32,000 nucleotides of DNA from the NCBI RefSeq assembly GCF_018336915.1, contig NZ_CP064927.1:178326-210325 (forward strand). The letters are read 5' to 3'. Positions 264-23,066 of the stretch are shown piece by piece. A program made the translations under genes and the position numbers. The stretch is from Acaryochloris marina S15. GTDB taxonomy: Bacteria > Cyanobacteriota > Cyanobacteriia > Thermosynechococcales > Thermosynechococcaceae. A model generated the notes under the pieces. It saw only the letters and a program-made list of their open reading frames with translations. It made no database searches and was not told the origin of the DNA. Within the stretch, counting starts at the first letter, position 1, and each line of letters starts with the position of its first letter.

Positions 264-2297
264 ATGGAAAGGGAAGCACTCGTAATTGGAATTCCTGAAT
301 ATGACAACTTCAGTTCTCTACCAAAAACTACAATAGATGCTGAGGCTGTGGCAACACTGCTCGAAAAATATGGAGGCTTTAGAGTTGAGCGTTTACCCAA
401 AAAATTAAATCCTGATAAAACTGGTCAAACCACTAAAGCAGATAAAGTTACTTATAAGCAGCTAGCAACTGCTCTCAAAGCTTTTATCCAAAGAGCTAAT
501 AACAAATACGCACTTATTTATTTCACTGGCCATGGATTTACAGAGCAGAGCTTATTAGGAAGGACACGGGGGTTTCTATGTCCATCTGATTGCTCTATCA
601 AACATAATGATGAAGGCATTATTTCTAGTCAAGTGAATGGTTTAGATTTTGAAGAATTAAACCATTCACTTGAGCAAGCACAATTCAGCCAACTGGTATT
701 GCTACTGGATTGTTGTCATAGTGGATATTTTATTGAAAGATATCAAGTTGAGAATGGCTTAAAAACATTCTTAGGATCAAAAGATTTTTATCTGATCACT
801 GCTTGTTTAAGTAGTGAAACTGCAAAAGCGATCATAAGCAAAGAGAACAGCGTTTTTTCTGGAGCAGTTATCCGTGGTCTCTCACAAGAGAATCAAGATC
901 ATGATGGAAAGATCAGTGCCAGTCGTCTATTCGATTTTATTCAAAGAGAGTTGAAGAGCCGACTCCAAGAACCTCTACACCTAGGTTCTGGTAGTTCAAT
1001 TAATCTATTAACATACGGAAATATTGAATCAAGCACACCCGTAATTCTCGATGGCAACGGTGAACCACAATGTCCCTATCGAGGTTTATCTCCTTTTGAA
1101 GTTGAACACGAAAAATTTTATTTTGGACGAAGAGCTGAAGTACAAGAAATCATCCAAAAACTGTATTGCTTCTCGTTCGTATCCATTATTGGAGCATCAG
1201 GGAGTGGTAAGTCTTCGTTAGTAAAGGCTGGGTTAATTCCCCATCTTGAAGATGAATGGCATATTTTGAATTCTATTAAACCAGATGCTCGACCTATAGT
1301 TAATTTAGGTCAAGCAATTGGCAGTCTGTTCGAACTATCCTGTGATCGTAAACAGATCATAGAACTGCTTGAAAAAGATGGTATTTCACCAGTTTTAGAG
1401 ATGTTATCAAAGACTACTTTAATGAATTCAGGGAAGCAGAAAATATTGCTAGTGATTGATCAGTTTGAAGAGGTTTTTACTATCTGTGTTTCTGGTAAAG
1501 AAAGATCGCAATTTATTGAGTGTATGGCTGCGGTAAAAGCTCATGATAATTCTCCTTTATCTATTGTAATGACGATAAGATCTGAGTTTACACATGATCT
1601 TTTTCAAGTCTACAACAATCTTTTTCAGAGGAATAAAGATTCAATACTTTGGTTGGGTCAACTACAAGGAGAGGACTTGCGGGAGGCTATTAAACTACCA
1701 GCAATGAATCAAGGTTATACCCTGGAGGCAGGGTTAATGGAATTGCTTGTGAATGATGTTCAGGCTGAAATGAACTTTCTGCCCTTGCTAGAATTTGCAT
1801 TAACTGAATTATGGGATAGACGAGAAAAAGCTAGAAAAGAGCTTCCGCTTCGTACTTATATGGATATGAATCGCTTGTCAGGAGCATTAGATAAGCGTGC
1901 GGAAGATGTATATAACGATGCTTTAAGAACAGAAGATGAACGTTCCTGGATTAAGCGCATTTTTTTGGAGTTAGTTCGTTTTGGTATACAAGGTATAGAT
2001 ACAAGAGAGCGCAAAACTCGTAAAAGTCTAATAGCAATGGGACCAACCCCAACAGAACAAAGTGTAATTGACAAGGTAATTGAAGTCCTCATACAAGGCC
2101 GGCTATTAGCATCAACCAATGAGCATGAAATTGACTTGGTCCATGAAACCTTAATGTCTGGCTGGAAACGCTTCTCTAAGTGGCGGAAAGAGAATCGTGA
2201 GGACAAACTATTAGTTCAGCAACTTGGGGATGCCGTGACAGAATGGCAACGTGAAGGAGACTCTTTTCTATTACAAGGGGGGGCTAGCAAAGGTTAG
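264..2297 (+). CDS. orthocaspase (peptidase C14-like) + STAND P-loop NTPase; 5' segment of a frame-split caspase-NTPase-WD40 gene
   Basis: Caspase His/Cys dyad motifs YFTGHGF and LLLDCCHSGY. Then CPYRGLSPFEVEHEKFYFGRR followed by Walker A GASGSGKSSLVKAG and Walker B LLVIDQFEEVF. A helical/wHTH-like tail ends HETLMSGWKRFSKWRKENRE...LLQGG, then stops 5 codons after a G7 run. Confidence 0.85.
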   Translation: MEREALVIGIPEYDNFSSLPKTTIDAEAVATLLEKYGGFRVERLPKKLNPDKTGQTTKADKVTYKQLATALKAFIQRANNKYALIYFTGHGFTEQSLLGRTRGFLCPSDCSIKHNDEGIISSQVNGLDFEELNHSLEQAQFSQLVLLLDCCHSGYFIERYQVENGLKTFLGSKDFYLITACLSSETAKAIISKENSVFSGAVIRGLSQENQDHDGKISASRLFDFIQRELKSRLQEPLHLGSGSSINLLTYGNIESSTPVILDGNGEPQCPYRGLSPFEVEHEKFYFGRRAEVQEIIQKLYCFSFVSIIGASGSGKSSLVKAGLIPHLEDEWHILNSIKPDARPIVNLGQAIGSLFELSCDRKQIIELLEKDGISPVLEMLSKTTLMNSGKQKILLVIDQFEEVFTICVSGKERSQFIECMAAVKAHDNSPLSIVMTIRSEFTHDLFQVYNNLFQRNKDSILWLGQLQGEDLREAIKLPAMNQGYTLEAGLMELLVNDVQAEMNFLPLLEFALTELWDRREKARKELPLRTYMDMNRLSGALDKRAEDVYNDALRTEDERSWIKRIFLELVRFGIQGIDTRERKTRKSLIAMGPTPTEQSVIDKVIEVLIQGRLLASTNEHEIDLVHETLMSGWKRFSKWRKENREDKLLVQQLGDAVTEWQREGDSFLLQGGASKG

Positions 2298-4455
2298 AGA
2301 AAGGTGGTCAACTCTCCATAAGATAGTCACACCTCTAGTTCGAGATTTTTATCAATGCAGCATTGATAAAGAAGTAGAGAAAATTGAAATTCTAGAGAAG
2401 GCTTTGAGGGAAGCGGAGTTACGAGAACAAGCCTGGAAAGTTATGTGTCTCATTCCTACTAACCTCCATGAGGCTGCAGCCTTGGCAATACAAAATACAC
2501 AAAAGAGCGACGAACTTATCTATGGAGAAGTGCTTGCTCCTGTACAGGGGAATTTAAGAACTATTAGCGACAAGATTGTAGAACTATACTGCTATCAAGA
2601 CCACGGAGTTCCTTGTCTATCTGTAGCCTTTAGTCCCAATGGCCAGCAAATTGTGGGTGGTGATGATGATGGGAACCTATGGTTATGGAATACATTTGAA
2701 ACTTCCAGTGGCGTACCTTTCCATGGTCATACTGCTTCTGTGGGGTCCGTTGCCTTTAGCCCTGATGGTCAGAAGATTATTAGTGGTAGTGATGATAAAA
2801 CACTTCGACTATGGGATTCGCATGGTAATCAAATTGGCGATCTTTTTCGTGGTCATAAGTCTTCTGTTTGGACTGTAGCCTTTAACCCAAACAGTCGGAC
2901 AATTGTTAGTGGAAGTGCTGACGGAACTCTAAGGCTATGGGATCTACAAGGAAATACTATTGGTAAACCTTTTGACTGCCACGGGATTACAGTACTTTCC
3001 GTAGCTTTTAGTCCTAATGGCCAATACATTGTCAGTGGTAGTAAAGATAAAACTTTAAGGCTATGGGATTTACAAGGAAATACTATTGGTAAACCTTTTT
3101 ATGGTCATGATGATTTTGTTTTTTCAGTGGCCTTTAATCCTAATGGTCAGCAAATTGTTAGTGGTAGTGCTGATGGAACTCTAAGGCTATGGGATCTACA
3201 AGGAGATACTATTGGTAAACCTTTCCATGGTCATACTGCTTCTGTGGGGTCCGTTGCCTTTAGCCCTGATGGTCAGAAGATTATTAGTGGTAGTGATGAT
3301 GGGACCGTACGGATATGGGATATATTCGGACACCCCATTTGTAAACCTCTTCATGGTCATGCTAATTCTGTTCTGTCTGTTGCCTTTTGCTATGATTGCC
3401 AGACAGTGGTCAGTAGTGGAGATGATAAAACAGTTCGACTATGGGATATAAAAAACCATACTATTTCTACTCTCCAAGGCCATATTGGTATGGCTTGGTC
3501 CGTAGCCTTTAGTCCTAATGGCCAACAAATTGTCAGTGGTAGTAATGACAAAACAGTTCGACTATGGGATACACAAGGCAATTCTATTAGAGACCCTTTT
3601 CATGGTCATACTGATTCTGTTTTGTCCGTAGCCTTTAGTCCTAATGGCCAACAAATTGTCAGTGGTAGTAATGATGGAACTTTGAGATTATGGGATACGC
3701 TGGGCAATCCTATTGGTAAACCTCTTCGAAGTCTTACTGATTCTGTTTTGTCCGTAGCCTTTAGTCCTAATGGCCAACAAATTGTCAGTGGTGGTAATGA
3801 TAGGACTTTGAGATTATGGGATTTACAAGGAAATCCTATTGGTGAACCTTTTGATGATCATACTGATTCTATTTTGTCCGTAGCCTTTAGTCCTAATGGC
3901 AAACAAATTGTCAGTGGTAGTAATGATAGAACTTTGAGATTATGGGATTTACAAGGAAATCCTATTGGTGAACCTTTTTATGGTCATACTGCTTCTGTTT
4001 TGTCCGTAGCCTTTAGTCCTAATGGCAAACAAATTGTCAGTGGTAGTAATGATAGAACTTTGAGATTATGGGATTTACAAGGAAATCCTATTGGTGAACC
4101 TTTTTATGGTCATACTGATTCTGTTAGAGCTGTAGCCTTCAGCCCAGATGGTCAGATGATCATTAGTGGTAGCTCTGATCAGACCCTACAATTGTGGGAT
4201 GTGAAAGGTAATCCTATTGGTGAACCTCTTCGAGGTCATACTGCTTCTGTTTTGTCAGTAGCTTTTAGCCCAGATGGTCAGATTATTATTAGTAGTAGTT
4301 CTGACTTTACCCTGCGAATATGGCGAGGTGGAGTTTGGCGTGACTGGTTAGCTATCTGTTGCAATCGATTTCGAAATCATTCTCATTTCAAACATCCTAC
4401 AAGAGAGCCTTTTCTCTCGGCTCGTCAGATCTGCCAGGACCGTGTTGGTAGTTAG
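2251..4455 (+). CDS. WD40-repeat sensor segment (14 repeats, i.e. two 7-bladed propellers); 3' part of the split caspase-STAND-WD40 gene
   Basis: Fourteen 42-aa units of the form GHxxxVxSVAFSPxGQxIVSGSxDxTLRLWD. The N-terminal ..GGLAKVRERW.. continues the linker of the upstream ORF in the +1 frame. The GTG at 2251 is probably not a real start. Confidence 0.85.
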   Translation: MKETLFYYKGGLAKVRERWSTLHKIVTPLVRDFYQCSIDKEVEKIEILEKALREAELREQAWKVMCLIPTNLHEAAALAIQNTQKSDELIYGEVLAPVQGNLRTISDKIVELYCYQDHGVPCLSVAFSPNGQQIVGGDDDGNLWLWNTFETSSGVPFHGHTASVGSVAFSPDGQKIISGSDDKTLRLWDSHGNQIGDLFRGHKSSVWTVAFNPNSRTIVSGSADGTLRLWDLQGNTIGKPFDCHGITVLSVAFSPNGQYIVSGSKDKTLRLWDLQGNTIGKPFYGHDDFVFSVAFNPNGQQIVSGSADGTLRLWDLQGDTIGKPFHGHTASVGSVAFSPDGQKIISGSDDGTVRIWDIFGHPICKPLHGHANSVLSVAFCYDCQTVVSSGDDKTVRLWDIKNHTISTLQGHIGMAWSVAFSPNGQQIVSGSNDKTVRLWDTQGNSIRDPFHGHTDSVLSVAFSPNGQQIVSGSNDGTLRLWDTLGNPIGKPLRSLTDSVLSVAFSPNGQQIVSGGNDRTLRLWDLQGNPIGEPFDDHTDSILSVAFSPNGKQIVSGSNDRTLRLWDLQGNPIGEPFYGHTASVLSVAFSPNGKQIVSGSNDRTLRLWDLQGNPIGEPFYGHTDSVRAVAFSPDGQMIISGSSDQTLQLWDVKGNPIGEPLRGHTASVLSVAFSPDGQIIISSSSDFTLRIWRGGVWRDWLAICCNRFRNHSHFKHPTREPFLSARQICQDRVGS
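2277..2283 (+). other. G7 homopolymer at the junction of the two reading frames of the caspase-STAND-WD40 gene
   Basis: Counted directly: g at 2277-2283. Frame 0 reads caa ggg ggg gct agc aaa ggt tag. The +1 frame reads aag ggg ggg cta gca aag gtt and stays open to 4455. Confidence 0.95.
2596..4333 (+). repeat. tandem array of 126-bp (42-codon) WD40 units with long identical stretches
   Basis: Period 126 bp. 3872-3991 is identical by eye to 3998-4117 (120 bp). 2716-2796 is identical to 3220-3300 (81 bp, 504 bp = 4 units apart). Confidence 0.9.
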
Positions 4456-4743: not shown

Positions 4744-6207
4744 GGAAGCGTAATATATTTACAATTTATATGTATTCATGCTACGTTCTTTTGAGTGAGG
4801 TAGATGGCATGGAGTTTTGAGATGGATTACGAATTACGGGTAGTCGTTGAGAAAGTATCCGTCAGTTCTCAAGAGGTCTTAAAACGTGACACTCTTAAAG
4901 TTTATGACATTAAGTCACCAGAATCCATTTTAGAGTTAGGTCTGCGTCATGAAGAGCAAATCTCACTGTTAGAAAAGATTCAGAACTCTGTTTTAGCCGT
5001 GCAATCAACCTTGATTAAAACAGGCTATGATGTTTGCCCAAGATGTGGGGATAAGCTCAAAAAGATGGGATTTACGCCCTCTAAATTTCATGCTGTTTTC
5101 AGTGATCATAAAGTCCGCATCCAAAAACACAAATGTCTTAATCCAGACTGTAAATGGCAAAGTACCCCTTCAACGGCCTCTGTCTTTGGCACTTGTATTC
5201 ACCCAGATTTAGCGAAACTGCAATGTGAGCAAGGTGCTTTATACAGCTTCCGACAAGCCGAGACTAATTTGGAGCAGTTGACGGTTCATCGCCGTCCGGT
5301 CAATAACCATAACAAAATCAAGCTGCTCACCAATGAAGTGGGGGCAACCTTAGCCCAAGAGAATCTCAAACCATTGGCAACACCCAAAGGTACTGCCATT
5401 GCACAAGAGATTACCCTCCAAGTAGATGGGGGGCATATCCCTGACAAAGATAAGGATAAACGTAGCTTTGAAGCGCTCTCTGCTGTTGTTTACCGGCCAG
5501 AGAATATCATCGAAGTGGATAGTCATCATCGTCAGATCAAGGATAAAAGCTGTGCCCTCTCAGCCCAAGATGACGAACTAGCGACCATGAAGCTCTTTAC
5601 GCTCAATGCAGCCCGAAAGCAGGGTATGACGAAAAAGACTAAGGTCACGGCTTTAGCCGATGGTGCTCAAAATTGTTGGTCAGTGATTTTAAGCTTGGCT
5701 CCACACTGCAAAAATCTTCTGTGTATATTGGATTGGTTTCATCTTGCCATGCGATTTCAGAATGTCAGAGGGGCGGTAGATGACACCTTCGAAAAAACCT
5801 TAGAGGGAGTGAAGTGGAAATTGTGGCATGGCAAGTCGGATGAGGCGTTGCAGAAATTAGAACTGCTGATGAACAATATTACTGATTCAAAGAAGCGCTC
5901 AAAACTGAAGAAGTTATATAACTATCTAGAGAACAATCAAGCCTATCTAGTAAATTATGAAGAGCGCGATAAACAGGGCCTAAGTTACACCAGTCAAGTG
6001 GCAGAATCTCATATCGATACGATTATCAATGACCGCTTTAAACGAACTAAGAAAATGCAGTGGACTCATGATGGTGCTCATAATATCTTGCAGATTAGAG
6101 GGATGATCACCAGTAATGAATGGGATGAAAACTGGCAAGTACCTGTAATCTCAGCCTTGACAGTAGCTGCATAACGAGCCTATAGCCTGTAGATATATTA
6201 CGCTTTC
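4744..6207 (+). mobile_element. insertion sequence, single DDE transposase, ~17-bp imperfect terminal inverted repeats
   Basis: IRL is ggaagcgtaatatattt (4744-4760). The reverse complement of IRR (6191-6207) is gaaagcgtaatatatct, matching 15/17. I found no clear target-site duplication. Confidence 0.75.
4804..6174 (+). CDS. IS transposase, Zn-finger + DDE type (ISKra4/ISL3-like by recollection; family uncertain)
   Basis: 456-aa ORF. N-terminal CPRCG...CLNPDC zinc-finger-like pairs. Candidate acidic triad contexts are QVDGGHIP, ALADGAQNCW and VAESHIDTIINDRFKR, plus an LDWFHL motif. It is bracketed by inverted repeats. Confidence 0.8.
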   Translation: MAWSFEMDYELRVVVEKVSVSSQEVLKRDTLKVYDIKSPESILELGLRHEEQISLLEKIQNSVLAVQSTLIKTGYDVCPRCGDKLKKMGFTPSKFHAVFSDHKVRIQKHKCLNPDCKWQSTPSTASVFGTCIHPDLAKLQCEQGALYSFRQAETNLEQLTVHRRPVNNHNKIKLLTNEVGATLAQENLKPLATPKGTAIAQEITLQVDGGHIPDKDKDKRSFEALSAVVYRPENIIEVDSHHRQIKDKSCALSAQDDELATMKLFTLNAARKQGMTKKTKVTALADGAQNCWSVILSLAPHCKNLLCILDWFHLAMRFQNVRGAVDDTFEKTLEGVKWKLWHGKSDEALQKLELLMNNITDSKKRSKLKKLYNYLENNQAYLVNYEERDKQGLSYTSQVAESHIDTIINDRFKRTKKMQWTHDGAHNILQIRGMITSNEWDENWQVPVISALTVAA

Positions 6208-11487: not shown

Positions 11488-11789
11488 CCCAAGATACTAC
11501 CCCAACCCGTTTCTCTTCTTTGGTGGACTTGTCTAAAGACTTGTTGCCCATTTTGGCTGTGATCGGGCTTCTGGTAGGTGGTTTATTCTTCCTGATTAAC
11601 ACCAGCGTTGCCGCTATTGTCCCCACTAGCGAAAGTAGGTTGCTCGATAAGATTGCTGATAACAGAATCCAGATTGAGCTATTGCGAAAAGACGTGAACA
11701 CTCAATTTGAGAAAGTTGATCAGCAGTTTGATGGAATCAATCAACGGCTGGATCGGATTGAGCAACTATTGCAGCAGGATAAACCATGA
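11484..11789 (+). CDS. small membrane-anchored coiled-coil protein
   Basis: ATGA overlap with the XRE stop. TM helix LLPILAVIGLLVGGLFFLI, then the heptad-like IQIELLRKDVNTQFEKVDQQFDGINQRLDRIEQLLQQ. Confidence 0.6.
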   Translation: MTQDTTPTRFSSLVDLSKDLLPILAVIGLLVGGLFFLINTSVAAIVPTSESRLLDKIADNRIQIELLRKDVNTQFEKVDQQFDGINQRLDRIEQLLQQDKP

Positions 11790-11980
11790 ACAGTAGTAGC
11801 CCTCAACGATGGACTGACAAATGGCTTGATGCCCTTGCAGCCTCTACCCAGAGATTGCTTGATGCAACCCAGGCCAATACTGAAACAATCAGTCAAGTCT
11901 TGGAGCAGCAAAAAACTACAGACAAGAACATCGATTTATTGATTGAAGGTCAACTAGCGATGCAAACTCTACACGGTTAG
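11786..11980 (+). CDS. hypothetical small protein (frame stays open 24 more codons after its TAG)
   Basis: ATGA overlap with the upstream gene. The TAG is at 11978-11980. The same frame continues VAEQTLQLKRAVDYLLSKDGGQS* to 12052, 3 nt before the next ATG. Confidence 0.5.
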   Translation: MNSSSPQRWTDKWLDALAASTQRLLDATQANTETISQVLEQQKTTDKNIDLLIEGQLAMQTLHG

Positions 11981-12055
11981 GTTGCAGAGCAGACTTTACA
12001 GCTCAAGCGGGCTGTTGATTACTTATTGAGCAAAGATGGTGGGCAATCATGACTA

Positions 12056-12274
12056 ATGGGATCTGAAGAAATTATCATTCGCTACTACCGCAAACCTCTT
12101 CCTGTAATGGTTGATCCTGGTAAGAATCATCCACAACATGAGCCTGATTTATTACTAGGTTGGATTTGTCAGGGTAAGGATAGAAGCCCCGTACTCAAGA
12201 GCTTCCCCAATGCGGTAATAGTGGCTAAAACTAAAGCTAGGACTAAGCCTTATCTAACCCTAGTAAAGCAATAG
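12056..12274 (+). CDS. possible small protein (72 aa)
   Basis: ATG lies 3 nt after the TGA of the extended upstream frame. It overlaps the 3' end of the convergent gene by 32 nt. No motif recognised. Confidence 0.3.
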   Translation: MGSEEIIIRYYRKPLPVMVDPGKNHPQHEPDLLLGWICQGKDRSPVLKSFPNAVIVAKTKARTKPYLTLVKQ

Positions 12275-12674
12275 CCTTCTTTATCCTGTCTTTCCCCGGT
12301 GCCCAATTATCCCCCTCAGTCATCCTCACCACCTCCCCCCAAGCCTTAAGCTGATTAGCCCTCGACAGCTTTACCAATGGCCGAGCAGCACTCTCAGACT
12401 GAGGAAGCACATCAAAATGCTCCTGCAAGAACAATACGAGTTCAGCCGCTTGAATACAGCGAAAAGCATGGATGTAGGTAACCCCAAGATTTTCTTCCAC
12501 ATAGACCTTAAAGCCCTTAGAGCCTGGTAAATACAACTTGTTGTCTTGAATAACTTTCAAAGCCAACCCAGAAGACAACAGAGCATTCGTTCCAGTTTCA
12601 GTCGGTTCCAAAAATATTTCTTCCAGCTCCGTTAAGCCTTTAGATTTAAATTCCTGCAAGTCCATATCACTCAA
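12243..12674 (-). CDS. putative DNA-binding protein (ParB/KorB-like HTH pattern; weak)
   Basis: 143 aa. FKVYVEENLGVTYIHAFRCIQAAELV...LPQSESAARPLVKLSRANQLKAW resembles the HTH/'PxSE..R.L' pattern of plasmid ParB-type proteins. It diverges from the AAA-vWA operon. Confidence 0.4.
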   Translation of the reverse strand: MSDMDLQEFKSKGLTELEEIFLEPTETGTNALLSSGLALKVIQDNKLYLPGSKGFKVYVEENLGVTYIHAFRCIQAAELVLFLQEHFDVLPQSESAARPLVKLSRANQLKAWGEVVRMTEGDNWAPGKDRIKKAIALLGLDKA

Positions 12675-12771
12675 GGCTAGAAGTCAGAGCCAGATGAATT
12701 ATAGCAAGCCATCCTTTATCCGAAATCTCTACTAGGCAATATACAATCCGTACAGAAAGTGAGTTAATCTC

Positions 12772-14100
12772 ATGCCAAACTTAATCAGCAAATTAATCAC
12801 AGCCAAGACCGCAGACCCCAAAGGCGACTCATCGGCTAAGGCCAAAATTGATACCGCTCCCCAACTTTCCGTAGAAGATATCTGGGATACCCTAGCAGAT
12901 CGTGACCTCTATCGGCTCTCCATCGAGATTGACTCAGGGCTGCGCCTCTCGACCCGATTAGATGCCGTAGACCTGGGACTAGATCCCTATGTTGTCGATG
13001 AGCTAGCGGGAGGCTACCGCAAAGCCTTCTCAGACGCCTTCACGAAAGCTAGAAATCAACTCTCTGGCCTACAGAAGAAGTTCAACAAACAATTCACTAT
13101 CTACGTCAAGCCCTTCAGATTTATTGATGGCAGTGTGATCAATGATGCCGTTGACTTCACTCAACAAATCAAACTAGAGGCTGCATCCTTACGCCAAGAC
13201 TTAGTGGACACCTACGCCGATCAGCTCAAAACATTTTTAGTAGAGCTAGACCGGAAGCTCAATGAAACGATTCCAGGGGAAAAGAAGCAGATTGAACAAG
13301 CCCTGATCCACTATGCCCAGGAATTCCCCAGCATTGATGATTTCTCTGGTTCTCTCCAGGTGATCATCGATGGCCCAGTCCAGCTCACTTCCTTGAAGAA
13401 TAAGCTCAAGGCCGATGCTGACTTACAGGCTGAGCTAGCCAAAAAGAAGAGACTGACAGCGAAGCAAAAGCAGGAAGCTCAGGCCATCCAAGAGCGCATT
13501 AAAACCAGTCAATTGATGCTCAACGGCATCGCTCAGGCAGTGCAGCAGTCCCGTGTGGCTTGCCTTGATGAAGGCTGGGAACTGATGGCCGATCTGATTG
13601 ACCGTTTTGGAGCCAGCCCTGATGGGAAGCTCACCAGCAAAGACCAGTCTGCGATCAGCTCAACATTCTCTAGGCTGGAATTGCTAGAGAAGCATAACCC
13701 CGAGATATCACAGCACCTCATAGAGGCTAAGAAGCTGCATGAGGTAATGCAGGGCACCCCCACTCCAGAACAAGCCCAAGAAGCCTATGAGAAGTTCTCT
13801 GAATTCCTCGCCAAGCAATCCCAGTCAGCGAGTGGTGACGGAGCCGAGAAGCTTCAGAAATCTCTCAGATTTGCCAACGACTATAAAGAGATAGTCGCCA
13901 AGCTAGAGAAGTTAATTGAGACACCCGACTCAGACACATTAGCTGAACTGGAAGCAGGGCAACTCGCCAATATTGAAACGACGCTTACCCGCCGAGTTGC
14001 CAATCTCAGACGACTCACCAAGCAAGCTCAACAATCAGCACAATACAACAAGGAAAAAGCAGCAGCCCAAGGTGGAGTTGATCCAGTTGCTGGCTTCTGA
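12772..14100 (+). CDS. 442-aa coiled-coil protein, first gene of the AAA+/vWA operon (possibly DUF3150-like; recollection)
   Basis: Long ORF with Lys/Glu/Gln-rich helical stretches (LKADADLQAELAKKKRLTAKQKQEAQAIQERIK). No enzymatic motif seen. Confidence 0.65.
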   Translation: MPNLISKLITAKTADPKGDSSAKAKIDTAPQLSVEDIWDTLADRDLYRLSIEIDSGLRLSTRLDAVDLGLDPYVVDELAGGYRKAFSDAFTKARNQLSGLQKKFNKQFTIYVKPFRFIDGSVINDAVDFTQQIKLEAASLRQDLVDTYADQLKTFLVELDRKLNETIPGEKKQIEQALIHYAQEFPSIDDFSGSLQVIIDGPVQLTSLKNKLKADADLQAELAKKKRLTAKQKQEAQAIQERIKTSQLMLNGIAQAVQQSRVACLDEGWELMADLIDRFGASPDGKLTSKDQSAISSTFSRLELLEKHNPEISQHLIEAKKLHEVMQGTPTPEQAQEAYEKFSEFLAKQSQSASGDGAEKLQKSLRFANDYKEIVAKLEKLIETPDSDTLAELEAGQLANIETTLTRRVANLRRLTKQAQQSAQYNKEKAAAQGGVDPVAGF

Positions 14101-14184
14101 TCCTAGAAATATTTTCAATAACTGTAGGGAATTTATATTGCCTAGGCTACTTAGATTCTGTAGAGAAAACAAAAATTTAAGCTC

Positions 14185-15342
14185 ATGACTGCACTTCAAA
14201 CCAAGCTTCAAACGCTACGAAAAGAACTCAACGCCGCTCACCTGGAGCGTAAATCTGTGATTGATGGATTGCTGGCTACATTGCTGGCGAACCAGAACGC
14301 TTTGCTGTATGGGCCTCCAGGGACTGGGAAAAGCTTGATATTAAGAGAGATCTGCTTTGCGATCGCAGATGCGAATTTCTTCCAAAGATTGCTTCATAAA
14401 GCTATGTCTCCCGATGAAGTCTTAGGGCAAATCAGCCTCAAGGCACTGGAGAATGACGTTATGAAGCGGAATACTAGCGGCAGGCTTCAGGAGGCTCACT
14501 TGGCCTTTTTGGATGAAGTCTTTAGAGGTAATGGGGTATTGCTCAATAGCTTGCTGGAGCTGATGAATGAGCGCACCTACGACAACCCAGACAAGCAACA
14601 AAGCCCTCTGCGCTCAATTGTCGGGGCAACTAACTCCATTGACTCAGGGAGCGATTTGGAAGCGTTTGCCGACCGCTTTGTCTACCGCCCCTGGCTCTTC
14701 GATCTTAAGACTCCCAGCTCTACTAAGAAACTGTTGGGCTGGACAATCAAAGGAAATCGCCCCCAGGTGAGTCAAGGTCTGATTTCATTGGCCGAACTCG
14801 ATCAGATGTGTGCTGAAGTTCAACAGGTCAAAATCAGCGATGCGATGGTGGATGCTTTCACTGAGATTATCCACACCCTGATTCGCGATGGCTTTGTGGT
14901 CAGTGCCCGACGACGAGTGAAATTGCTGCAATTGGTTCGGTGCTTTGCGTATGTCCAAGGAGACGATCAGGTATATCTAGAGCATATCCACGAGCTGTTA
15001 CCCCAGTGCTGTTGGAAGTCCAAGATTGAGGAAATCCGAGAGATTAAGAGACTGATTGAAACAGCCGCACCCATCGCGAAAAAGGAGTTATCGAGCATTA
15101 CCCAAGCCGCTCAAAGTGAAGTCTTAAGACTAGAACAAAAGTTGAATAACTCAAGTCTGGGTCATACCGATCATGTGAATGCCGCAGACTTCGCTAGAAC
15201 TCAGCTCACCAATCTTAGTCAGAGTATGGCTAAAGTCAAAGCTGATTTATGCAGGAATGGTGCTAGCCAAAAAACGAGAGCAGAGGCCGACCTACAGGCG
15301 AAATCACAGCGAGTCAGTGAACTAGTTGAAGGCTTGTATTGA
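14185..15342 (+). CDS. MoxR-family AAA+ ATPase, RavA-like (lacks the RavA C-terminal LARA region)
   Basis: Walker A LLYGPPGTGKSL, Walker B/box AFLDEVFRGNGVLLNSLLELMNERTY, sensor IVGATN, and VSARRRVKLLQLVRCFAYVQG...CCW. Each block parallels E. coli RavA as I remember it ([44 protein letters not shown]...CLW). Confidence 0.85.
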   Translation: MTALQTKLQTLRKELNAAHLERKSVIDGLLATLLANQNALLYGPPGTGKSLILREICFAIADANFFQRLLHKAMSPDEVLGQISLKALENDVMKRNTSGRLQEAHLAFLDEVFRGNGVLLNSLLELMNERTYDNPDKQQSPLRSIVGATNSIDSGSDLEAFADRFVYRPWLFDLKTPSSTKKLLGWTIKGNRPQVSQGLISLAELDQMCAEVQQVKISDAMVDAFTEIIHTLIRDGFVVSARRRVKLLQLVRCFAYVQGDDQVYLEHIHELLPQCCWKSKIEEIREIKRLIETAAPIAKKELSSITQAAQSEVLRLEQKLNNSSLGHTDHVNAADFARTQLTNLSQSMAKVKADLCRNGASQKTRAEADLQAKSQRVSELVEGLY

Positions 15343-16015
15343 TATGTACACCCAGCTCAAGACAGAATTAAACCCGATCACAGCCGAAGTCAGCGCAACC
15401 TCAAAGCTGTTTTGGCAAGACTATCTCAAGTCCAATCAAGCGATGGTCGAGATAACCTCAGAAACCAACATCAGAACCCTAAACAGCTTTGCCCTTGAAG
15501 TTTTCCATCGACTCTATTACTCTCCCGATCCTGAGTGGTTACCGGAAAAACCCGAGCATCAATGGGCTAGAGTGTTGCACAACCAGCTTTCTGAGTCAGA
15601 AGAGTTCCAGAATCTAACCCTGACCTGTGCGGGTGATCCATTAGGGGCAGCAATCGCCGCACAATCCATGATCACCAATCTGCACAGGCAGCTTAAGGTT
15701 GCCAGTGGTGATCAGGAAATTGACGAACTGGATACCCTGAGAGCTAAGGCCAAGCAAGCGAAGAGGGAGGGTGACGAGGAATTATTTCAGAAGCTCCAAG
15801 CCCAAGGGCAGGCCATGTCTGAAGCTGCCCAAGCCTTTGCTCAAAGACTAGAAGACCAGGAAGGGGAAGGCATTGGCGAAAGTGCTGAAGATGCTGAGGG
15901 GGAAGTACAGGAAAAAAAGACGAGTTGGAAGCTCTGGGGATTAGTTGGGGGAATGAATCGGGTGATCGCAATCCCACACCTACCGGGAGAAGCTAAAGCT
16001 TGCGGCTTTGATTGA
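15326..16015 (+). CDS. N-terminal part of a ViaA-like protein (acidic/coiled-coil)
   Basis: The likely ATG is 15344, 1 nt after the RavA-like stop. The tail ..SWKLWGLVGGMNRV.. resembles the ViaA segment GRLWDMSAGQLKR. It ends 8 nt inside the vWA ORF. Confidence 0.6.
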   Translation: MKACIDMYTQLKTELNPITAEVSATSKLFWQDYLKSNQAMVEITSETNIRTLNSFALEVFHRLYYSPDPEWLPEKPEHQWARVLHNQLSESEEFQNLTLTCAGDPLGAAIAAQSMITNLHRQLKVASGDQEIDELDTLRAKAKQAKREGDEELFQKLQAQGQAMSEAAQAFAQRLEDQEGEGIGESAEDAEGEVQEKKTSWKLWGLVGGMNRVIAIPHLPGEAKACGFD

Positions 16016-16793
16016 GGAGAATCCCCAGCTTAAAAAGATTCTAGACCTCGCTGGTAATGCCTTAGAGACTGCCAACCGTAAACGCCGACAGCATCAAGCC
16101 GAGACGGGATACGGTGAACTGGTGGGGATTACCACGGGCAATGATGTCTCACAGATTTTGCCTCAAGAGTTGGGAAGGCTGTCAGATTCCAGGCAGAAAC
16201 TGAGTTTTTATCGAGACTTTCTAGAAGGGCAGTTGTTCCAGAATGACTTGCAAGCCCCCGAGGAGAAGGGTAAAGGCCCGATGGTGATCTGCTTGGATTG
16301 CTCTGGATCGATGAAAGAGCGAGTAAGCCGAGATTTATGGTCAAAAGCTCTGATCGTGGCCTTGGTGAAATTGGCGAATGAACAGGATCGGGTGGTGTCA
16401 GTGGTTCGCTTTGAGTCTGTCTGCTTTGAGCCTATCGAGATTCATCCCAAAGAAGATATTGATCAGCTGATCCGATTACTGGTGACAAGTCCCACCAATG
16501 GCGGGACAGAGTTTCAAGCTCCACTGGAGAGAGCCAGGGAGATCATTGAGCAGGATGCTGATTACAGTGAGGCCGATATTGTTTTCATCACGGATGGGAT
16601 TGCGCCCCTGAGTTCTGTGTTTCTAAAAGAGTACTCAGATTCCCTAGAGAAAATGAAAACTAATTTCTTCTTGTTGGAGATTGAACCAGAGTGGGGATGG
16701 TCAAACGCTCTCAAAGATTTGGCGAGTCAAGCTTGGGTAATTGACGTGGAGGGGAATTTTGATGAGCTGGGGGCTGTGTTTACGGCTTGTTAG
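16008..16793 (+). CDS. von Willebrand factor A (vWA) domain protein, ViaA-like C-terminal part
   Basis: MIDAS motif VICLDCSGSM, plus GGTEF and VFITDG. The only start in this frame is TTG 16008. The frame is open from 15966 (..YREKLKLAALIEENPQLKKILDLAGN, cf. ViaA ..EQPELKRLAEQLGR). Confidence 0.8.
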   Translation: MIEENPQLKKILDLAGNALETANRKRRQHQAETGYGELVGITTGNDVSQILPQELGRLSDSRQKLSFYRDFLEGQLFQNDLQAPEEKGKGPMVICLDCSGSMKERVSRDLWSKALIVALVKLANEQDRVVSVVRFESVCFEPIEIHPKEDIDQLIRLLVTSPTNGGTEFQAPLERAREIIEQDADYSEADIVFITDGIAPLSSVFLKEYSDSLEKMKTNFFLLEIEPEWGWSNALKDLASQAWVIDVEGNFDELGAVFTAC

Positions 16794-16824
16794 TTAGTCA
16801 CTAAAAAATACGGAGAAGAAATCT

Positions 16825-17199
16825 ATGTCCTTTAAACTTCAACAAACCAAACAATGCAAAAATTGCCCATGGCGCGTAGACTCCGATCCCTACGCTATCA
16901 ATGGATATAGCCTGCAAATGCATCAGGATCTAACGAGTACGATTGCCGATCCAGGGGTAATCACTTTTAGCAAAGAAATAAGGGCAATGGCTTGCCATAA
17001 TTCTACAGATGAGCAGCAATTTCACTGTATCGGCTGGCTGGTTCATCAGCTCGGCGTGGGCAATAACATTGGCCTTAGAATGTACCTGCGGAATTGCGAA
17101 AATGCCAGTGAGATTGAAGTGTTTGGAGAACAGCATCAAAGATTAGAAGATACCTTGCCAAATGAAGAATGTGAGACTGAAATTGACTGGGATGATTAA
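16825..17199 (+). CDS. Cys-rich protein (CxxCPW...ACH...C.GW), acidic tail
   Basis: 124 aa: QCKNCPWRVDS...AMACHNSTDEQQFHCIGWLVHQLG. It follows the vWA gene after 31 nt. Confidence 0.6.
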   Translation: MSFKLQQTKQCKNCPWRVDSDPYAINGYSLQMHQDLTSTIADPGVITFSKEIRAMACHNSTDEQQFHCIGWLVHQLGVGNNIGLRMYLRNCENASEIEVFGEQHQRLEDTLPNEECETEIDWDD

Positions 17200-17202
17200 G
17201 GG

Positions 17203-17445
17203 ATGTCCAAAGAGCAAGATATAGATGCAAGAGCCGCACAAGTGGAAGCAATCATGCTGAAACTTGAGGAAGTTTTAGATCTAGATGATCCACGCCAAAA
17301 TCGTCTCCACCAATGCATGGATGCGATCGCAAATCAATACATCGGTGGATCGATTGATAAATGCTGGGAAGTTCTTCAGCCATTGGATCAACAGATTGAT
17401 ATCGAACTTCTAGAGCATCAGTTAAAGCTTGATCAAAATCAGTAA
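17203..17445 (+). CDS. small acidic helical protein
   Basis: 80 aa. It starts 3 nt after the previous stop and is the last gene of the operon. Confidence 0.5.
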   Translation: MSKEQDIDARAAQVEAIMLKLEEVLDLDDPRQNRLHQCMDAIANQYIGGSIDKCWEVLQPLDQQIDIELLEHQLKLDQNQ

Positions 17446-19964: not shown

Positions 19965-20417
19965 GTGATATCTGCCGTAAATAAAGCCATGACTGAACCC
20001 CTTACCCTGACAGCCGCAGTAATTGCCAATCTCGCCTTTCAAGAGTTCCTAAAATCCAGCGCTGGTGAAGCAGCAAAACAGTTCACTGCTGAAGCAATAG
20101 CTAAGATGAGCGAGCTTCGTCAGAAGATTTGGGATAGGCTGCGGGGTAAACATGATGCGGCAGAACAAGCATTAACCCAAGCAAAGTCAGGTGATCAGAA
20201 AGCAATCGAAACCATTGCTACTCTGCTAGGTGTGGAAATGCTAGATGAAGCCTTTGCTGGAGAACTTCGACAGATAGCCCAAGAAATCAATATTCACATC
20301 AGCAAGGACACCAACACCCAAGTTCAAAATAACTACGGTGGAACCAACTTCCAAAACAGTATTTCAGGTGGAGAGGTTTTTCAAGGCGAGAACATCACCA
20401 TCAATAAGACCACTTGA
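19965..20417 (+). CDS. helical N-terminal module of the NB-ARC-TPR gene, terminated by an in-frame TGA
   Basis: The likely ATG is 19989 (MTEPLTLTAAVIANLAF...). It ends ..GGTNFQNSISGGEVFQGENITINKTT then TGA (20415-20417). The same frame continues into the NB-ARC domain. Confidence 0.65.
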   Translation: MISAVNKAMTEPLTLTAAVIANLAFQEFLKSSAGEAAKQFTAEAIAKMSELRQKIWDRLRGKHDAAEQALTQAKSGDQKAIETIATLLGVEMLDEAFAGELRQIAQEINIHISKDTNTQVQNNYGGTNFQNSISGGEVFQGENITINKTT

Positions 20418-23066
20418 CTAGAGTCGTCCGACTGGGACCGGACAAAGTTACATTCCCCTACCGATATACTCAACAATCTACCTCCAAGTGGCGCTGTTGC
20501 CTTCGTCGGTCGAGACTCCCAGATCAACCAACTGCATGAGCAACTGCAAAGTAACCAGCGAATCGCTATCACTGCACTTGAAGGGATGGGAGGGATTGGT
20601 AAAACTGAACTCGCTTGGGAATATGCTCAACGGTCCTTAATCCAAAATCTCTATTCGGGTGGAGTGTGTTGGTTGCGGTCGCGAGATCAAGAAATCACCA
20701 CTCAGATTATTGATTTTTCTAAAAGCAATTTGGGAATGAAACCCCCAGATGATCTGGAAGTAGAGGCCCAGGTCAGTTTCATTTGGCAACGATGGCCCCA
20801 AGGGGAGGTTTTAATCGTTGTTGACGATGTGGTTGAGTATGAGCTTGTTGCCTCCTGTCTTCCTCTATCGAACCCACGGTTCAAAGTCCTGATCACCACT
20901 CGACTTGATTTTGGTGGATCTGTTCGCTCTCTTTGCCTGGAAGAACTCGATAATGAGAGCGCACTAACACTACTAGAAAAGCTGATTGGACAAAAACGGG
21001 TTCAGTCTCAATTAGAAGATGCAAAAACTTTGTGTGGTTGGGTCGGTAACCTGCCCCTTGGACTAGAGCTGCTAGGACGGTCATTAGCTAAAAAGCCAGA
21101 TTGGTCTTTTCAAAAACTAATTGAGCGACTTGAATCCAAGCGACTTGAGGCTAAAGCCCTAACAGCAAGAGAATCAGGAATGACGGCTCAGTTAGGAGTA
21201 GCTGCTGCACTGGAGTTGAGCTGGGTAGAGCTAAGTGAGGTAGAGCAGGAACTCGCTTGTTTATTAGGGATGTTTGCAATTGCCCCTATTCCTTGGCATT
21301 TGGTTGAAGGATGTCTATCAGATCAGGATAAGGACGACTTAGAAGACATCAGAGATGAAGGTTTAATTGCTAGAAACTTACTCAAACGAGTAGAACAGAG
21401 TACCTACCAACTCCATCAAATTGTGCAGGAGTTCTTTCGGATTAAGTTGAATGAGCACACTGACAAAGGGGAATCCCTTAAAGCCGCTTATTGCACAGCA
21501 ATGGTTGGTGTTGCTCAGAGTATTAATGACAGTCCAACACTTGATGTGATTGCAGGGATGAGAGCCAGCATTCCCCATCTGGAGGAACTAACCAGACAGT
21601 GGATTGACCAACTCAGTGATGATGATTTGACATGGCCCTATATCGGTATTGGTCGATTTTATGGAGGGCAAGGAAACTATGGCTTAGCTTTACCTTGGTA
21701 TCAAAAATGCCTGGAACAGACTCAACAAAGATTAGGCAACGAACACCCTGATGTCGCTCTTAGCCTCAATAACCTGGCAGAACTCTACAGAAACCAAGGA
21801 CGGCACACCGAAGCCGAACCCCTCCATGTCCAAGTCCTACAAATGTACCAGAAGCTCTTGGGCAACGAACACCCCTCTGTCGCGACTAGCCTCAATAACC
21901 TGGCAGGACTCTACGACAACCAAGGACGGTATACCGAAGCCGAACCCCTCCATGTCCAAGCCCTACAGATGTACCAGAAGCTCTTGGGCAACGAACACCC
22001 CTCTGTCGCGACTAGCCTCAATAACCTGGCAGCACTCTACTACAACCAAGGACGGTACACCGAAGCCGAACCCCTCTTGGTCCAAGTCCTACAAATGACA
22101 CAGAAGCTCTTAAGCAACGAACACCCCGATGTCGCGAGTAGCCTCAATAACCTGGCCTTACTCTACGACAACCAAGGACGGTACACCGAAGCCGAACCCC
22201 TCTATGTCCAAGCCCTACAGATGTACCAGAAGCTCTTGGGCACCGAACACCCCTCTGTCGCGACTATCCTCAATAACCTGGCAGAACTCTACAGAAACCA
22301 AGGACGGTATACCGAAGCCGAACCCCTCTTGGTCCAAGCCCTACAGATGTACCAGAAGCTCTTGGGCAACGAACACCCCTCTGTCGCGAGTAGCCTCAAT
22401 AACCTGGCAGGACTCTACGACAACCAAGGACGGTATACCGAAGCCGAACCCCTCTTGGTCCAAGCCCTACAGATGAGACAGAAGCTCTTGGGCAACGAAC
22501 ACCCCTCTGTCGCGAGTAGCCTCAATGACCTGGCCTTACTCTACGACAACCAAGGACGGTACACCGAAGCCGAATCCCTCTTGGTCCAAGCCCTAGAGAT
22601 GACACAGAAGCTCTTGGGCAACGAACACCCCTCTGTCGCGAGTAGCCTCAATAACCTGGCAGGACTCTACTACAACCAAGGACGGTACACCGAAGCCGAA
22701 CCCCTCTTGGTCCAAGCTCTACAGATGAGACAGAAGCTCTTGGGCAACGAACACCCCTCTGTCGCGAGTAGCCTCAATGACCTGGCCTTACTCTACAAAA
22801 ACCAAGGACGGTACACCGAAGCCGAATCCCTCTTGGTCCAAGCCCTACAGATGACACAGAAGCTCTTGGGCAACGAACACCCCTCTGTCGCGACTAGCCT
22901 CAATAACCTGGCAGCACTCTACTACAACCAAGGACGGTACACCGAAGCCGAACCCCTCTTGGTCCAAGCCCTACAGATGAGACAGAAGCTCTTGGGCAAC
23001 GAACACCCCAATACAGTCACATTGAAGCAAAATTTAGATACTTTGCGTCAACAAATGAAAGATTAA
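20418..23066 (+). CDS. NB-ARC (STAND) ATPase + ~10.5 KLC-type TPR repeats (track ORF starts at 20586)
   Basis: P-loop GMGGIGKTELA, Walker B VLIVVDDV, KVLITTR, GNLPLGLELLG. The conserved pre-P-loop segment NLPPSGAVAFVGRDSQINQLHEQL lies upstream of the first Met, with no in-frame start between 20418 and 20585. Confidence 0.85.
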   Translation, partial: LESSDWDRTKLHSPTDILNNLPPSGAVAFVGRDSQINQLHEQLQSNQRIAITALEGMGGIGKTELAWEYAQRSLIQNLYSGGVCWLRSRDQEITTQIIDFSKSNLGMKPPDDLEVEAQVSFIWQRWPQGEVLIVVDDVVEYELVASCLPLSNPRFKVLITTRLDFGGSVRSLCLEELDNESALTLLEKLIGQKRVQSQLEDAKTLCGWVGNLPLGLELLGRSLAKKPDWSFQKLIERLESKRLEAKALTARESGMTAQLGVAAALELSWVELSEVEQELACLLGMFAIAPIPWHLVEGCLSDQDKDDLEDIRDEGLIARNLLKRVEQSTYQLHQIVQEFFRIKLNEHTDKGESLKAAYCTAMVGVAQSINDSPTLDVIAGMRASIPHLEELTRQWIDQLSDDDLTWPYIGIGRFYGGQGNYGLALPWYQKCLEQTQQRLGNEHPDVALSLNNLAELYRNQGRHTEAEPLHVQVLQMYQKLLGNEHPSVATSLNNLAGLYDNQGRYTEAEPLHVQALQMYQKLLGNEHPSVATSLNNLAALYYNQGRYTEAEPLLVQVLQMTQKLLSNEHPDVASSLNNLALLYDNQGRYTEAEPLYVQALQMYQKLLGTEHPSVATILNNLAELYRNQGRYTEAEPLLVQALQMYQKLLGNEHPSVASSLNNLAGLYDNQGRYTEAEPLLVQALQMRQKLLGNEHPSVASSLNDLALLYDNQGRYTEAESLLVQALEMTQKLLGNEHPSVASSLNNLAGLYYNQGRYTEAEPLLVQALQMRQKLLGNEHPSVASSLNDLALLYKNQGRYTEAESLLVQALQMTQKLLGNEHPSVATSLNNLAALYYNQGRYTEAEPLLVQALQMRQKLLGNEHPNTVTLKQNLDTLRQQMKD
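21731..23010 (+). repeat. tandem 126-bp (42-codon) TPR units with a 252-bp higher-order duplication
   Basis: Unit LGNEHPSVATSLNNLAGLYDNQGRYTEAEPLLVQALQMxQKL. 22476-22727 is almost identical to 22728-22979. Confidence 0.9.

Follow-up and report, generated by a model that had tools for sequence, protein, structure and literature searches.

Positions 12772-17445 of a 32,000-nucleotide (nt) stretch of Acaryochloris marina S15 DNA (NZ_CP064927.1, 178,326-210,325, forward strand; this whole stretch is called the window, and coordinates refer to it) contain a gene for a RavA-clade MoxR AAA+ ATPase, a gene for a ViaA-like von Willebrand factor A (vWA) protein whose frame is disrupted in this copy and, upstream of both, a gene for a 442-amino-acid (aa) protein distantly related to DUF3150. 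This trio, located on a conjugative plasmid, is the RavA/ViaA-type counterpart of the CobS-type AAA/DUF3150/vWA triad of plasmids such as pCAR1. The trio was known as a kind of gene set before; what is new is the pairing of a DUF3150-superfamily protein with a RavA/ViaA-type motor. We propose, at about an even chance, that the three proteins would constitute an ATP-driven remodelling machine that serves the mobile element.

Six open reading frames (ORFs) are found in the locus, all on the + strand: 12772-14100 (442 aa), 14185-15342 (385 aa), 15326 or 15344 to 16015 (229 aa when counted from the TTG at 15326), 16008-16793 (261 aa), 16825-17199 (124 aa) and 17203-17445 (80 aa). The spacings, in order, are 84 nt; +1 nt from ATG 15344 or -17 nt from TTG 15326; -8 nt; 31 nt; and 3 nt. 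In relatives, the vWA gene starts at the homologous ATG, one base past the stop codon of the ATPase gene. The six-ORF arrangement is compatible with co-transcription. No intrinsic-terminator-like site was found on the + strand between 11900 and 18600, and promoter-like matches were not more frequent than in shuffled sequence.

The ATPase gene (14185-15342, + strand) was assigned by Pfam, NCBIfam, PDB sequence search and BLASTP. The protein matches Pfam bpMoxR (6e-40), AAA_5 (1e-20) and AAA_lid_8 (4e-5), as well as NCBIfam RavA with an E value of 1e-37, the 130 bits of the latter match not reaching the equivalog cut-off of 681. Its best PDB sequence match is E. coli RavA (4e-31), to which it is 30% identical over 280 aa by BLASTP. 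The Walker A motif GPPGTGKS (14311-14334), the DE of Walker B (14512-14517), sensor-1 N150, R164 and R242 are all invariant columns of the ATPase alignment A4, and the window protein has each of them. Neither LARA_dom nor ATPase_RavA_C was matched in Pfam at E values up to 1, and the protein ends at residue 385. The absence of LARA can be considered real because the control, E. coli RavA, matches LARA_dom at 1e-39 and ATPase_RavA_C at 2e-23. The control also scores higher than the window ATPase on bpMoxR, so this label denotes the RavA clade and not the β-propeller system. Without LARA and the RavA C-terminal domain, no docking onto LdcI is therefore expected. Based on these searches, the window ATPase is confirmed as a RavA-clade protein devoid of the LARA and RavA C-terminal domains.

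The vWA gene (15344-16793, + strand; 483 codons if repaired) encodes a product that matches Pfam VWA_2 (1e-10) and NCBIfam ViaA (5e-22). The ViaA match, at 79-81 bits, does not reach the cut-off of 500; NCBIfam ViaA is the best match for the window protein and for all of its mobile-element relatives. The orthologue on pREB5 has 27% identity to E. coli ViaA over 255 aa (E 3e-17, BLASTP). The metal-ion-dependent adhesion site, or MIDAS, of the vWA domain, DCSGS (DxSxS, 16296-16310), is followed downstream by the GGT (Thr) and ITDG (Asp) elements, and D319, S321, S323 and T389 are invariant in the vWA alignment A7, in which E. coli ViaA is included. The ViaA-like character of the predicted product is confirmed by this combination of profile and motif matches. 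A single vWA protein of 482-484 aa is encoded in pREC1, pREB5 and three metagenome or SRA contigs; as judged from these five relatives, the two vWA pieces of the window are one ViaA-like gene.

The 442-aa partner (12772-14100, + strand) gave nothing usable against Pfam, NCBIfam, PHROGs or PADLOC, and its PDB sequence and fold searches returned coiled-coil noise only. Its assignment is based on profile-profile comparison, Foldseek and gene order. In the AlphaFold2 (AF2) model, with a predicted local distance difference test (pLDDT) score of 84, an N-terminal α/β domain (residues ~45-205) is followed by a long helical region and a disordered C-terminal tail. The top Foldseek match of this model in BFVD is a viral DUF3150 protein (E 1.4e-6). 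Alignment with hhalign of the 442-aa family (A2) to 26 bona fide DUF3150 proteins (A6) gives a probability of 96.3% with an E value of 1.4e-9 over 229 columns. Pfam DUF3150 (PF11348) itself shows sub-threshold matches in three distant members of the family and none for the window protein. Considering the profile and model comparisons together, the 442-aa protein is a remote DUF3150 homologue at the superfamily level, not a member of the Pfam family. No Asp, Glu, His or Lys is invariant in the family (alignment A3), a feature that points to a structural or adaptor function rather than an enzymatic one. The family is rare, with 35 representatives at E ≤1e-3 among 1.84 billion in an exhaustive search; a word-indexed homologue search with the 442-aa protein retrieved Acaryochloris copies only. 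The homologue on Chroococcidiopsis plasmids (27% identity, E 1e-34) precedes the ATPase gene, and the 442-aa gene lies 5' of the ATPase gene in every cyanobacterial relative that has it.

To delimit the conserved unit, the gene content of nine cyanobacterial loci was compared. The only families shared among them are the partner (8/9), the ATPase (9/9) and the vWA protein (8/9), and in the sole locus without the vWA gene it is cut off by the contig end. The order partner-ATPase-vWA is constant in Acaryochloris, Chroococcidiopsis, Chlorogloeopsis, Nostoc and one uncultured cyanobacterium, with ATPase identity down to ~40%. Nucleotide synteny ends at the vWA stop (16793/16794) in four of the five Acaryochloris relatives compared, including pREB5, pREC1 and the closest relative, locus L108; the fifth, pMB04, is truncated within the 442-aa gene. 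The conserved unit comprises three genes (12772-16793). The 442-aa family is present in 10 PLSDB records, all of them plasmids and 8 of them typed as conjugative, and every complete record is a plasmid. A narrower ATPase alignment was used to search for related loci, and most of the matches were chromosomal ATPases of Binatia. These RavA-type ATPases are located beside housekeeping genes, many of them with no detectable vWA neighbour, and represent a different setting. It is noted that pREC1 carries an insert of ~1.3 kb between the partner and ATPase genes. In a Lyngbya metagenome-assembled genome (L020, 3211-5133), a stop-to-stop ORF with a RavA-type ATPase also bears N-terminal matches to CBM96 and disaggregatase repeats; no DUF3150-like gene was detected upstream, and the CBM96 junction may be a fusion or an artefact of ORF calling.

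An earlier, sequence-only reading of this stretch had given the ORF coordinates, strand and gaps as we find them, and had recognized the RavA-like ATPase of 385 aa lacking LARA, its place inside the MoxR/RavA clade and a ViaA-like vWA protein in two pieces; profile searches and the intact genes of five relatives bear out each of these assignments. Its placing of the genes on accessory DNA, as a mobile rather than a chromosomal housekeeping cluster, agrees with the plasmid records and with the domain matches of the surrounding genes. However, it described an operon of five or six genes with three unknown partners, and this description has to be revised, since synteny ends at the vWA stop and only the 442-aa protein is co-conserved. 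The supposed co-conservation of the flanking ORFs with the ATPase/vWA pair holds for the 442-aa gene but not for the 124-aa DUF6283 gene, which is replaced in L108, or for the 80-aa gene, which is shared only with the closest relative. Of the two kinships it offered for the locus, the hhalign match and the triad verified in pCAR1 support the second, namely kinship to the DUF3150/AAA/vWA triads, of which the locus would be a variant.

In pCAR1, genes for a CobS-like AAA protein, a DUF3150 protein and a vWA protein follow one another in this order between traN and ssb/recT/exo/mobH (ORF100-103). The same order is found in three more DUF3150 loci (L102-L104), beside DNA-metabolism genes. The pCAR1 cluster has been reported as conserved in R478, Rts1, SXT and R391, and on IncP-7, IncH and IncT plasmids (PMC2642839). 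Both the window trio and this CobS-type triad are located on mobile elements and combine a MoxR-family AAA+ ATPase with a vWA/MIDAS protein and with a DUF3150-superfamily protein in which a linker is disordered and a C-terminal Phe is conserved. In contrast, the window ATPase belongs to the RavA clade and is not of the CobS/CbbQ type; the vWA protein is ViaA-like and of 483 aa versus annotated NorD-like proteins of 604-670 aa; the gene order is partner-AAA-vWA instead of AAA-partner-vWA; the partner falls below the Pfam DUF3150 threshold and has, within its 442 aa, a long extra helical region; and its tail reads D-x-x-G-F where that of the CobS-type triad reads [W/S/L/F]-F. The pCAR1 AAA protein matches CobS at 2.8e-36 and the L102 ATPase bears CbbQ_C, whereas the window ATPase has no such matches and shares with the pCAR1 AAA protein P-loop similarity only. 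Two MoxR lineages are therefore coupled to DUF3150-superfamily proteins.

The resemblance to E. coli RavA-ViaA extends to the AAA+ module (bpMoxR/AAA_5/AAA_lid_8) and to a vWA gene directly downstream, of the same length (483 aa) and with a C-terminal MIDAS vWA domain. However, the window pair is plasmid-borne, lacks the LARA and RavA C-terminal domains, stays below the NCBIfam equivalog cut-offs and is accompanied by a co-conserved DUF3150-like gene that is absent from E. coli. MoxR/vWA pairs of large phages, gp66/gp63 of Bacillus phage 0305phi8-36 and gp147/gp146 of Aphanizomenon phage CL131, belong to the same families in the same order (phrog_19600 and phrog_24053, 2e-74 and 2e-31; 30-35% identity by tblastn), but no DUF3150-like gene was detected in the 0305phi8-36 and CL131 loci. 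Directly upstream of the CL131 pair, gp148 (L005, 758-1600) carries an LPD29 domain (E 7e-22). The trios of DUF6744, RavA-type ATPase and vWA protein on Pseudanabaena plasmids and in Firmicutes agree with the window trio in their ATPase and vWA families and in the order partner-AAA-vWA, but DUF6744 is another Pfam family, and no similarity between it and the 442-aa family could be detected (hhalign probability 1.6%). Both DUF6744 and CL131 gp148 were tested as hidden relatives of DUF3150, and both were rejected.

The vWA-MoxR ternary systems with VMAP or a β-propeller (PMC7159879) likewise combine MoxR and vWA proteins with a third component, in hosts rich in STAND-type conflict systems. Unlike in the VMAP system, the window vWA protein has no effector domain, and no VMAP was found, as judged by the absence of any non-vWA Pfam match, in line with the mismatch noted by the earlier reading. 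Pfam gave no matches for the 442-aa and 80-aa proteins and only DUF6283 for the 124-aa protein. Unlike in the MoxR-vWA-β-propeller system, no β-propeller gene is present at 11786-17445; a WD40 ORF at 2251-4455 abuts a caspase-nSTAND1 gene 8 kb away. PADLOC-DB 2.0 returned only weak P-loop-level matches (best E 1e-4), and none of its defence models was satisfied. At least one tested defining feature separates the trio from each of the following: RavA-ViaA proper, the classical triad, and the VMAP and β-propeller systems.

A shorter branch of the DUF3150-like family (346-420 aa) is represented by L013 2339-3379, L014 2218-3261, L015 6848-8035 and L016 6842-8098. The genes of this branch are located 5' of DUF1257, DUF2997 and an AAA ATPase of ~530-560 aa on plasmids of Nostoc and Leptolyngbya and on metagenome contigs. 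The ATPase is of the classical PF00004 type in L013; the L014 contig ends before any ATPase. In this cluster, the AAA ATPase looks to be a third type of motor coupled to the DUF3150-like superfamily.

The C-terminal tail of the 442-aa protein, VDPVAGF (14077-14097, + strand), is an instance of D-x(1-3)-G-F-COOH. In alignment A3, G441 and F442 are invariant and D437 is nearly so. The tail is retained in 13 of the 28 A2 sequences, among them all representatives found at E 2.8e-21 or better, and every member of the 442-type subfamily terminates in [Y/F/V]-D-x-x-[A/V]-G-F. It has low confidence in the AF2 model and is probably disordered. Three Pseudanabaena DUF6744 partners terminate in LFD[LI]GF, and a DEAD/DEAH helicase encoded on a Brevibacillus plasmid (L018 1-2929), 3 kb 5' of a RavA-type ATPase gene, terminates in AFDFGF; this helicase may be a second client of the motor. 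Among all ORFs of at least 80 aa in the fetched loci, D-x(1-3)-G-[FWY]-COOH was found in 20 of 6771. Of these, 18 are partners encoded upstream of a RavA-type ATPase on the same strand, and the remaining two are one antisense shadow ORF counted twice. The 18 tail-bearing partners span three sequence-unrelated families: DUF3150-like, Pseudanabaena DUF6744 and the one Brevibacillus DEAD/DEAH helicase. Canonical DUF3150 proteins paired with CobS-type ATPases terminate in [W/S/L/F]-F, and the subfamily beside DUF1257-DUF2997-classical AAA terminates in GH[RK]ALAxW.. (L013, L014 and related representatives), this last tail being divergent in L015 and absent in L016. The tail type co-varies with the ATPase type, because the partners of RavA-, CobS- and classical-AAA motors each bear different termini. 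Given this association, the D-x(1-3)-G-F tail is probably a docking peptide.

In the proposed machine, the ATPase would act as a hexameric motor and the vWA protein as its MIDAS-bearing adaptor and stimulator, by analogy with RavA-ViaA. The DUF3150-like protein would be a dedicated client or specificity subunit, docking via its flexible conserved tail, aromatic/hydrophobic-D-x-x-G-F-COOH. MIDAS domains bind an acidic residue of their ligands, as in integrin I-domains and in Rea1-Rsa4/Ytm1. The Asp or the terminal carboxylate of the tail is a plausible MIDAS ligand, and the Phe could serve as a hydrophobic anchor. Because no catalytic residues are conserved in the partner, the machine probably uses ATP to assemble, disassemble or remodel a protein or nucleoprotein complex and does not exert a toxic effect. 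The role would lie in the establishment, DNA processing or counter-defence of the element itself after entry, not in host housekeeping. The mobile-element context in the window includes ArdC, DUF6876 and toxin-antitoxin (TA) genes, and the neighbours of related modules elsewhere include SSB, RecT, exonuclease, DnaN, RecQ, DNA ligase and primase. In one preprint, a phage MoxR ATPase was reported as necessary for overcoming a predicted defence system (bioRxiv 10.1101/2025.11.20.689424). A broader version of the proposal is also conceivable, although we consider it unlikely: clients of unrelated fold would be recruited via an acidic-aromatic C-terminal peptide to a general tail-addressed MoxR/vWA machine of plasmids and phages that dismantles, for example, host defence or nucleoid complexes during establishment, with D-x(1-3)-G-F serving as the code for RavA-type motors, while CobS-type and classical AAA motors would respond to tails of other kinds.

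Several observations weigh against the remodelling proposal or parts of it. The docking of the tail to the MIDAS would follow by analogy from known MIDAS chemistry, the Firmicute DUF6744 partners do not have the tail, and the tail is seen in just one helicase. On pREB5, ~20 kb separate the module from mobF, towards which it is oriented; this speaks against a leading-region role if the origin of transfer (oriT) is assumed to be just upstream of mobF. No MoxR or vWA system is mentioned in the Nature 2024 leading-region paper. When the SXT core genes s067, s068 and s070 were deleted, transfer changed by no more than 10-fold (PMC2791158), a result that counts against the proposal if these genes are the triad. 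Decay of the module is also frequent. The Acaryochloris plasmid pMB06 has a split partner gene and an ATPase reduced to a 93-aa stub, in pMB04 the truncated partner adjoins a tyrosine recombinase, and in NC_009927.1 the ATPase match is in two pieces. Together with the broken vWA frame of the window, this decay implies that selection on the module is weak or episodic.

The same decay, together with a patchy distribution, is typical of defence genes and could be cited for a different function, namely a plasmid-borne anti-phage or anti-plasmid system in which a DUF3150-like coiled-coil protein is the sensor and the MoxR/vWA pair switches on an unrecognised effector or works through sequestration. 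The setting of the trio among STAND NTPases (caspase-nSTAND1, NB-ARC-TPR) and TA modules resembles a defence island, and MoxR/vWA pairs are parts of proposed conflict systems (PMC7159879). However, PADLOC has no match beyond P-loop noise; the three proteins have no effector domain, and acidic, His and Lys residues are not among the invariant positions of the partner; modules of this kind are also found next to replication genes in lytic jumbo phages; and canonical DUF3150 triads belong to plasmid DNA-metabolism backbones, not to defence islands. We therefore regard a defence function as quite improbable. The defence or counter-defence role suggested by the sequence-only reading finds no support here. 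Its observation that the operon has no nuclease, protease, TIR or pore motif still stands, no such domain being found in any of the six ORFs with Pfam, PADLOC, NCBIfam and PHROGs. It is rather unlikely, in our estimate, that the trio acts instead as a chaperone which matures a specific conjugation or replication complex of the plasmid, like RavA-ViaA, NorQ/NorD and CobS/CobT, with no role in conflict. Such a function would be in keeping with the kinship to RavA/ViaA, described as chaperone-like (PMC3893208, PMC10585395), with the annotation of the 0305phi8-36 pair as a metalloprotein chaperonin and with CobS as the best match of the pCAR1 AAA protein. But besides the DUF3150-like protein no conserved client gene accompanies the trio, and there is no CobN- or NorB-type partner; the SXT deletions barely affect transfer, if the genes are the same; and several Acaryochloris plasmids that retain mobF and a type IV secretion system (T4SS) can dispense with the module.

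Whatever its ancestral function, the module may be a relic in the present plasmid, with the vWA gene a true pseudogene; the probability of this falls only a little short of even. Relative to all five intact relatives, the window vWA gene has two 1-nt deletions, 73 nt apart, located by alignments A1 and A8. The first is in a run of seven A (15912-15918), where the relatives read GAGAAAAAAGAC, GAAAAGAAAGAC or GAGAAGAAAGAC; the second, in a run of three G (15985-15987), is also seen by three-frame translation. Both lesions are homopolymer contractions, consistent with changes from eight to seven A and from four to three G. The 25 codons between them are legible in the third frame, which ends at TAA 15994-15996, past the second deletion, and the downstream part is legible in the frame of 16008-16793. 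This C-terminal piece lacks an ATG, and no Shine-Dalgarno sequence is evident. Unless both homopolymer lesions are assembly errors, the vWA gene of the window can yield no full-length product. Real pseudogenes occur in the window, as indicated by an in-frame stop in its NB-ARC-TPR gene, and the decay of the module in sister plasmids is unmistakable. On the other hand, homopolymer contractions, together with a third split gene whose parts meet at the only G7 run of the window (2277-2283), are the signature of long-read consensus error. No other damage is seen in the 25 intervening codons or in the sequence that follows, and once repaired, the 483-aa product shares 83-86% identity with the intact proteins of pREB5 and pREC1. 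Because both lesions are in homopolymers and the third split gene meets at that G7 run, consensus error appears about as likely as true decay of the frame.

It should be mentioned that the first lesion creates A_AAA_AAG in the zero frame (15913-15919), a slippery heptamer for -1 shifts that we take to be of the dnaX type. The conserved vWA reading would be restored for 25 codons, up to the second lesion, by a -1 slip or by slippage of transcription on the run of seven A. Programmed frameshifting was considered and rejected, as the second lesion has no slippery site and recoding therefore cannot yield the full vWA protein.

The genes that flank the trio lie outside the core. The 124-aa protein (16825-17199, + strand) belongs to DUF6283 (Pfam 7.6e-9; phrog_18928, 2e-22) and has a CxxCPW motif and four conserved Cys/His positions. 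Its gene is outside the conserved module: the slot is occupied in L108 by an unrelated 122-aa gene, and DUF6283 is beside the trio in no other locus. The nearest plasmid relatives (~45-54% identity) are proteobacterial, namely those of Variovorax, Rhizobium, Sinorhizobium, Alteromonas and Paracoccus, where the neighbours are unrelated to the trio and include a RING-finger protein, an N6 methylase and recombinases (L007-L009). From this distribution, the DUF6283 gene seems to behave as a promiscuous small cassette that crosses phyla. A literature search on DUF3150 and DUF6283 gave nothing useful, and no papers were found on DUF6283. The adjacent gene for an acidic 80-aa protein (17203-17445, + strand) has 94% nt identity to L108 (11829-12299), where it comes after the 122-aa gene, has no family match and was not found in pREB5, pREC1 or the other loci; pREB5 and pREC1 have neither this gene nor DUF6283. 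On the other side, a divergent 143-aa gene (12243-12674, - strand) adjoins the trio in every Acaryochloris copy retrieved with its upstream flank, plasmid or metagenome. The loci of Chroococcidiopsis, Nostoc and Chlorogloeopsis lack this gene, which has no family match and is a lineage-specific neighbour, not a member of the conserved unit. It is weakly similar (E 3e-8) to a 272-aa protein (L013 4905-5723) encoded inside the DUF3150-like/DUF1257/DUF2997/AAA cluster of a metagenome contig.

Further away in the window, the neighbours include caspase-nSTAND1, NB-ARC-TPR, ArdC-N, an XRE-type helix-turn-helix (HTH) gene and DUF6876, as well as a RelE/HigA pair inferred from 97% nt identity to the annotated pMB06 pair. 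The caspase-nSTAND1 ORF (264-2297) and the WD40 ORF (2251-4455) overlap by 47 nt, with the frame change at the only G7 of the window; they probably represent a single caspase-STAND-WD40 gene, interrupted by a homopolymer indel that is either genuine or due to misassembly. In the NB-ARC-TPR gene (19965-23066), a 150-aa ORF (19965-20417) precedes ATG 20586 in the same frame and ends at an in-frame stop at ~20415-20417. The NB-ARC match starts at profile position 26, and the gene seems to begin upstream of that ATG; it is probably a nonsense-mutated STAND gene. Its TPR region (21732-23012) consists of repeats of ~126 nt. Between the caspase-STAND gene and an island of small ORFs, a 456-aa ORF (4804-6174) has a weak match (E 1.7e-7) to UPF0236, presumably a transposase-like family.

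The find is a modest one, given that the gene kind has been seen before and that the present copy may be broken. DUF3150/AAA/vWA triads are nonetheless backbone genes of important conjugative elements, and MoxR/vWA pairs recur in large phages. That a second, unrelated MoxR lineage is found paired with a DUF3150-superfamily protein suggests that the DUF3150-like protein is likely the constant functional partner. The presence of one tail motif in unrelated partners of one motor type offers a concrete and cheap test. If the tail-addressed machine is real, it would give the widespread DUF3150 triads their first function and recognition code. Should the module act in establishment or counter-defence, a field dominated by small inhibitor proteins would gain a class of ATP-driven remodelling.

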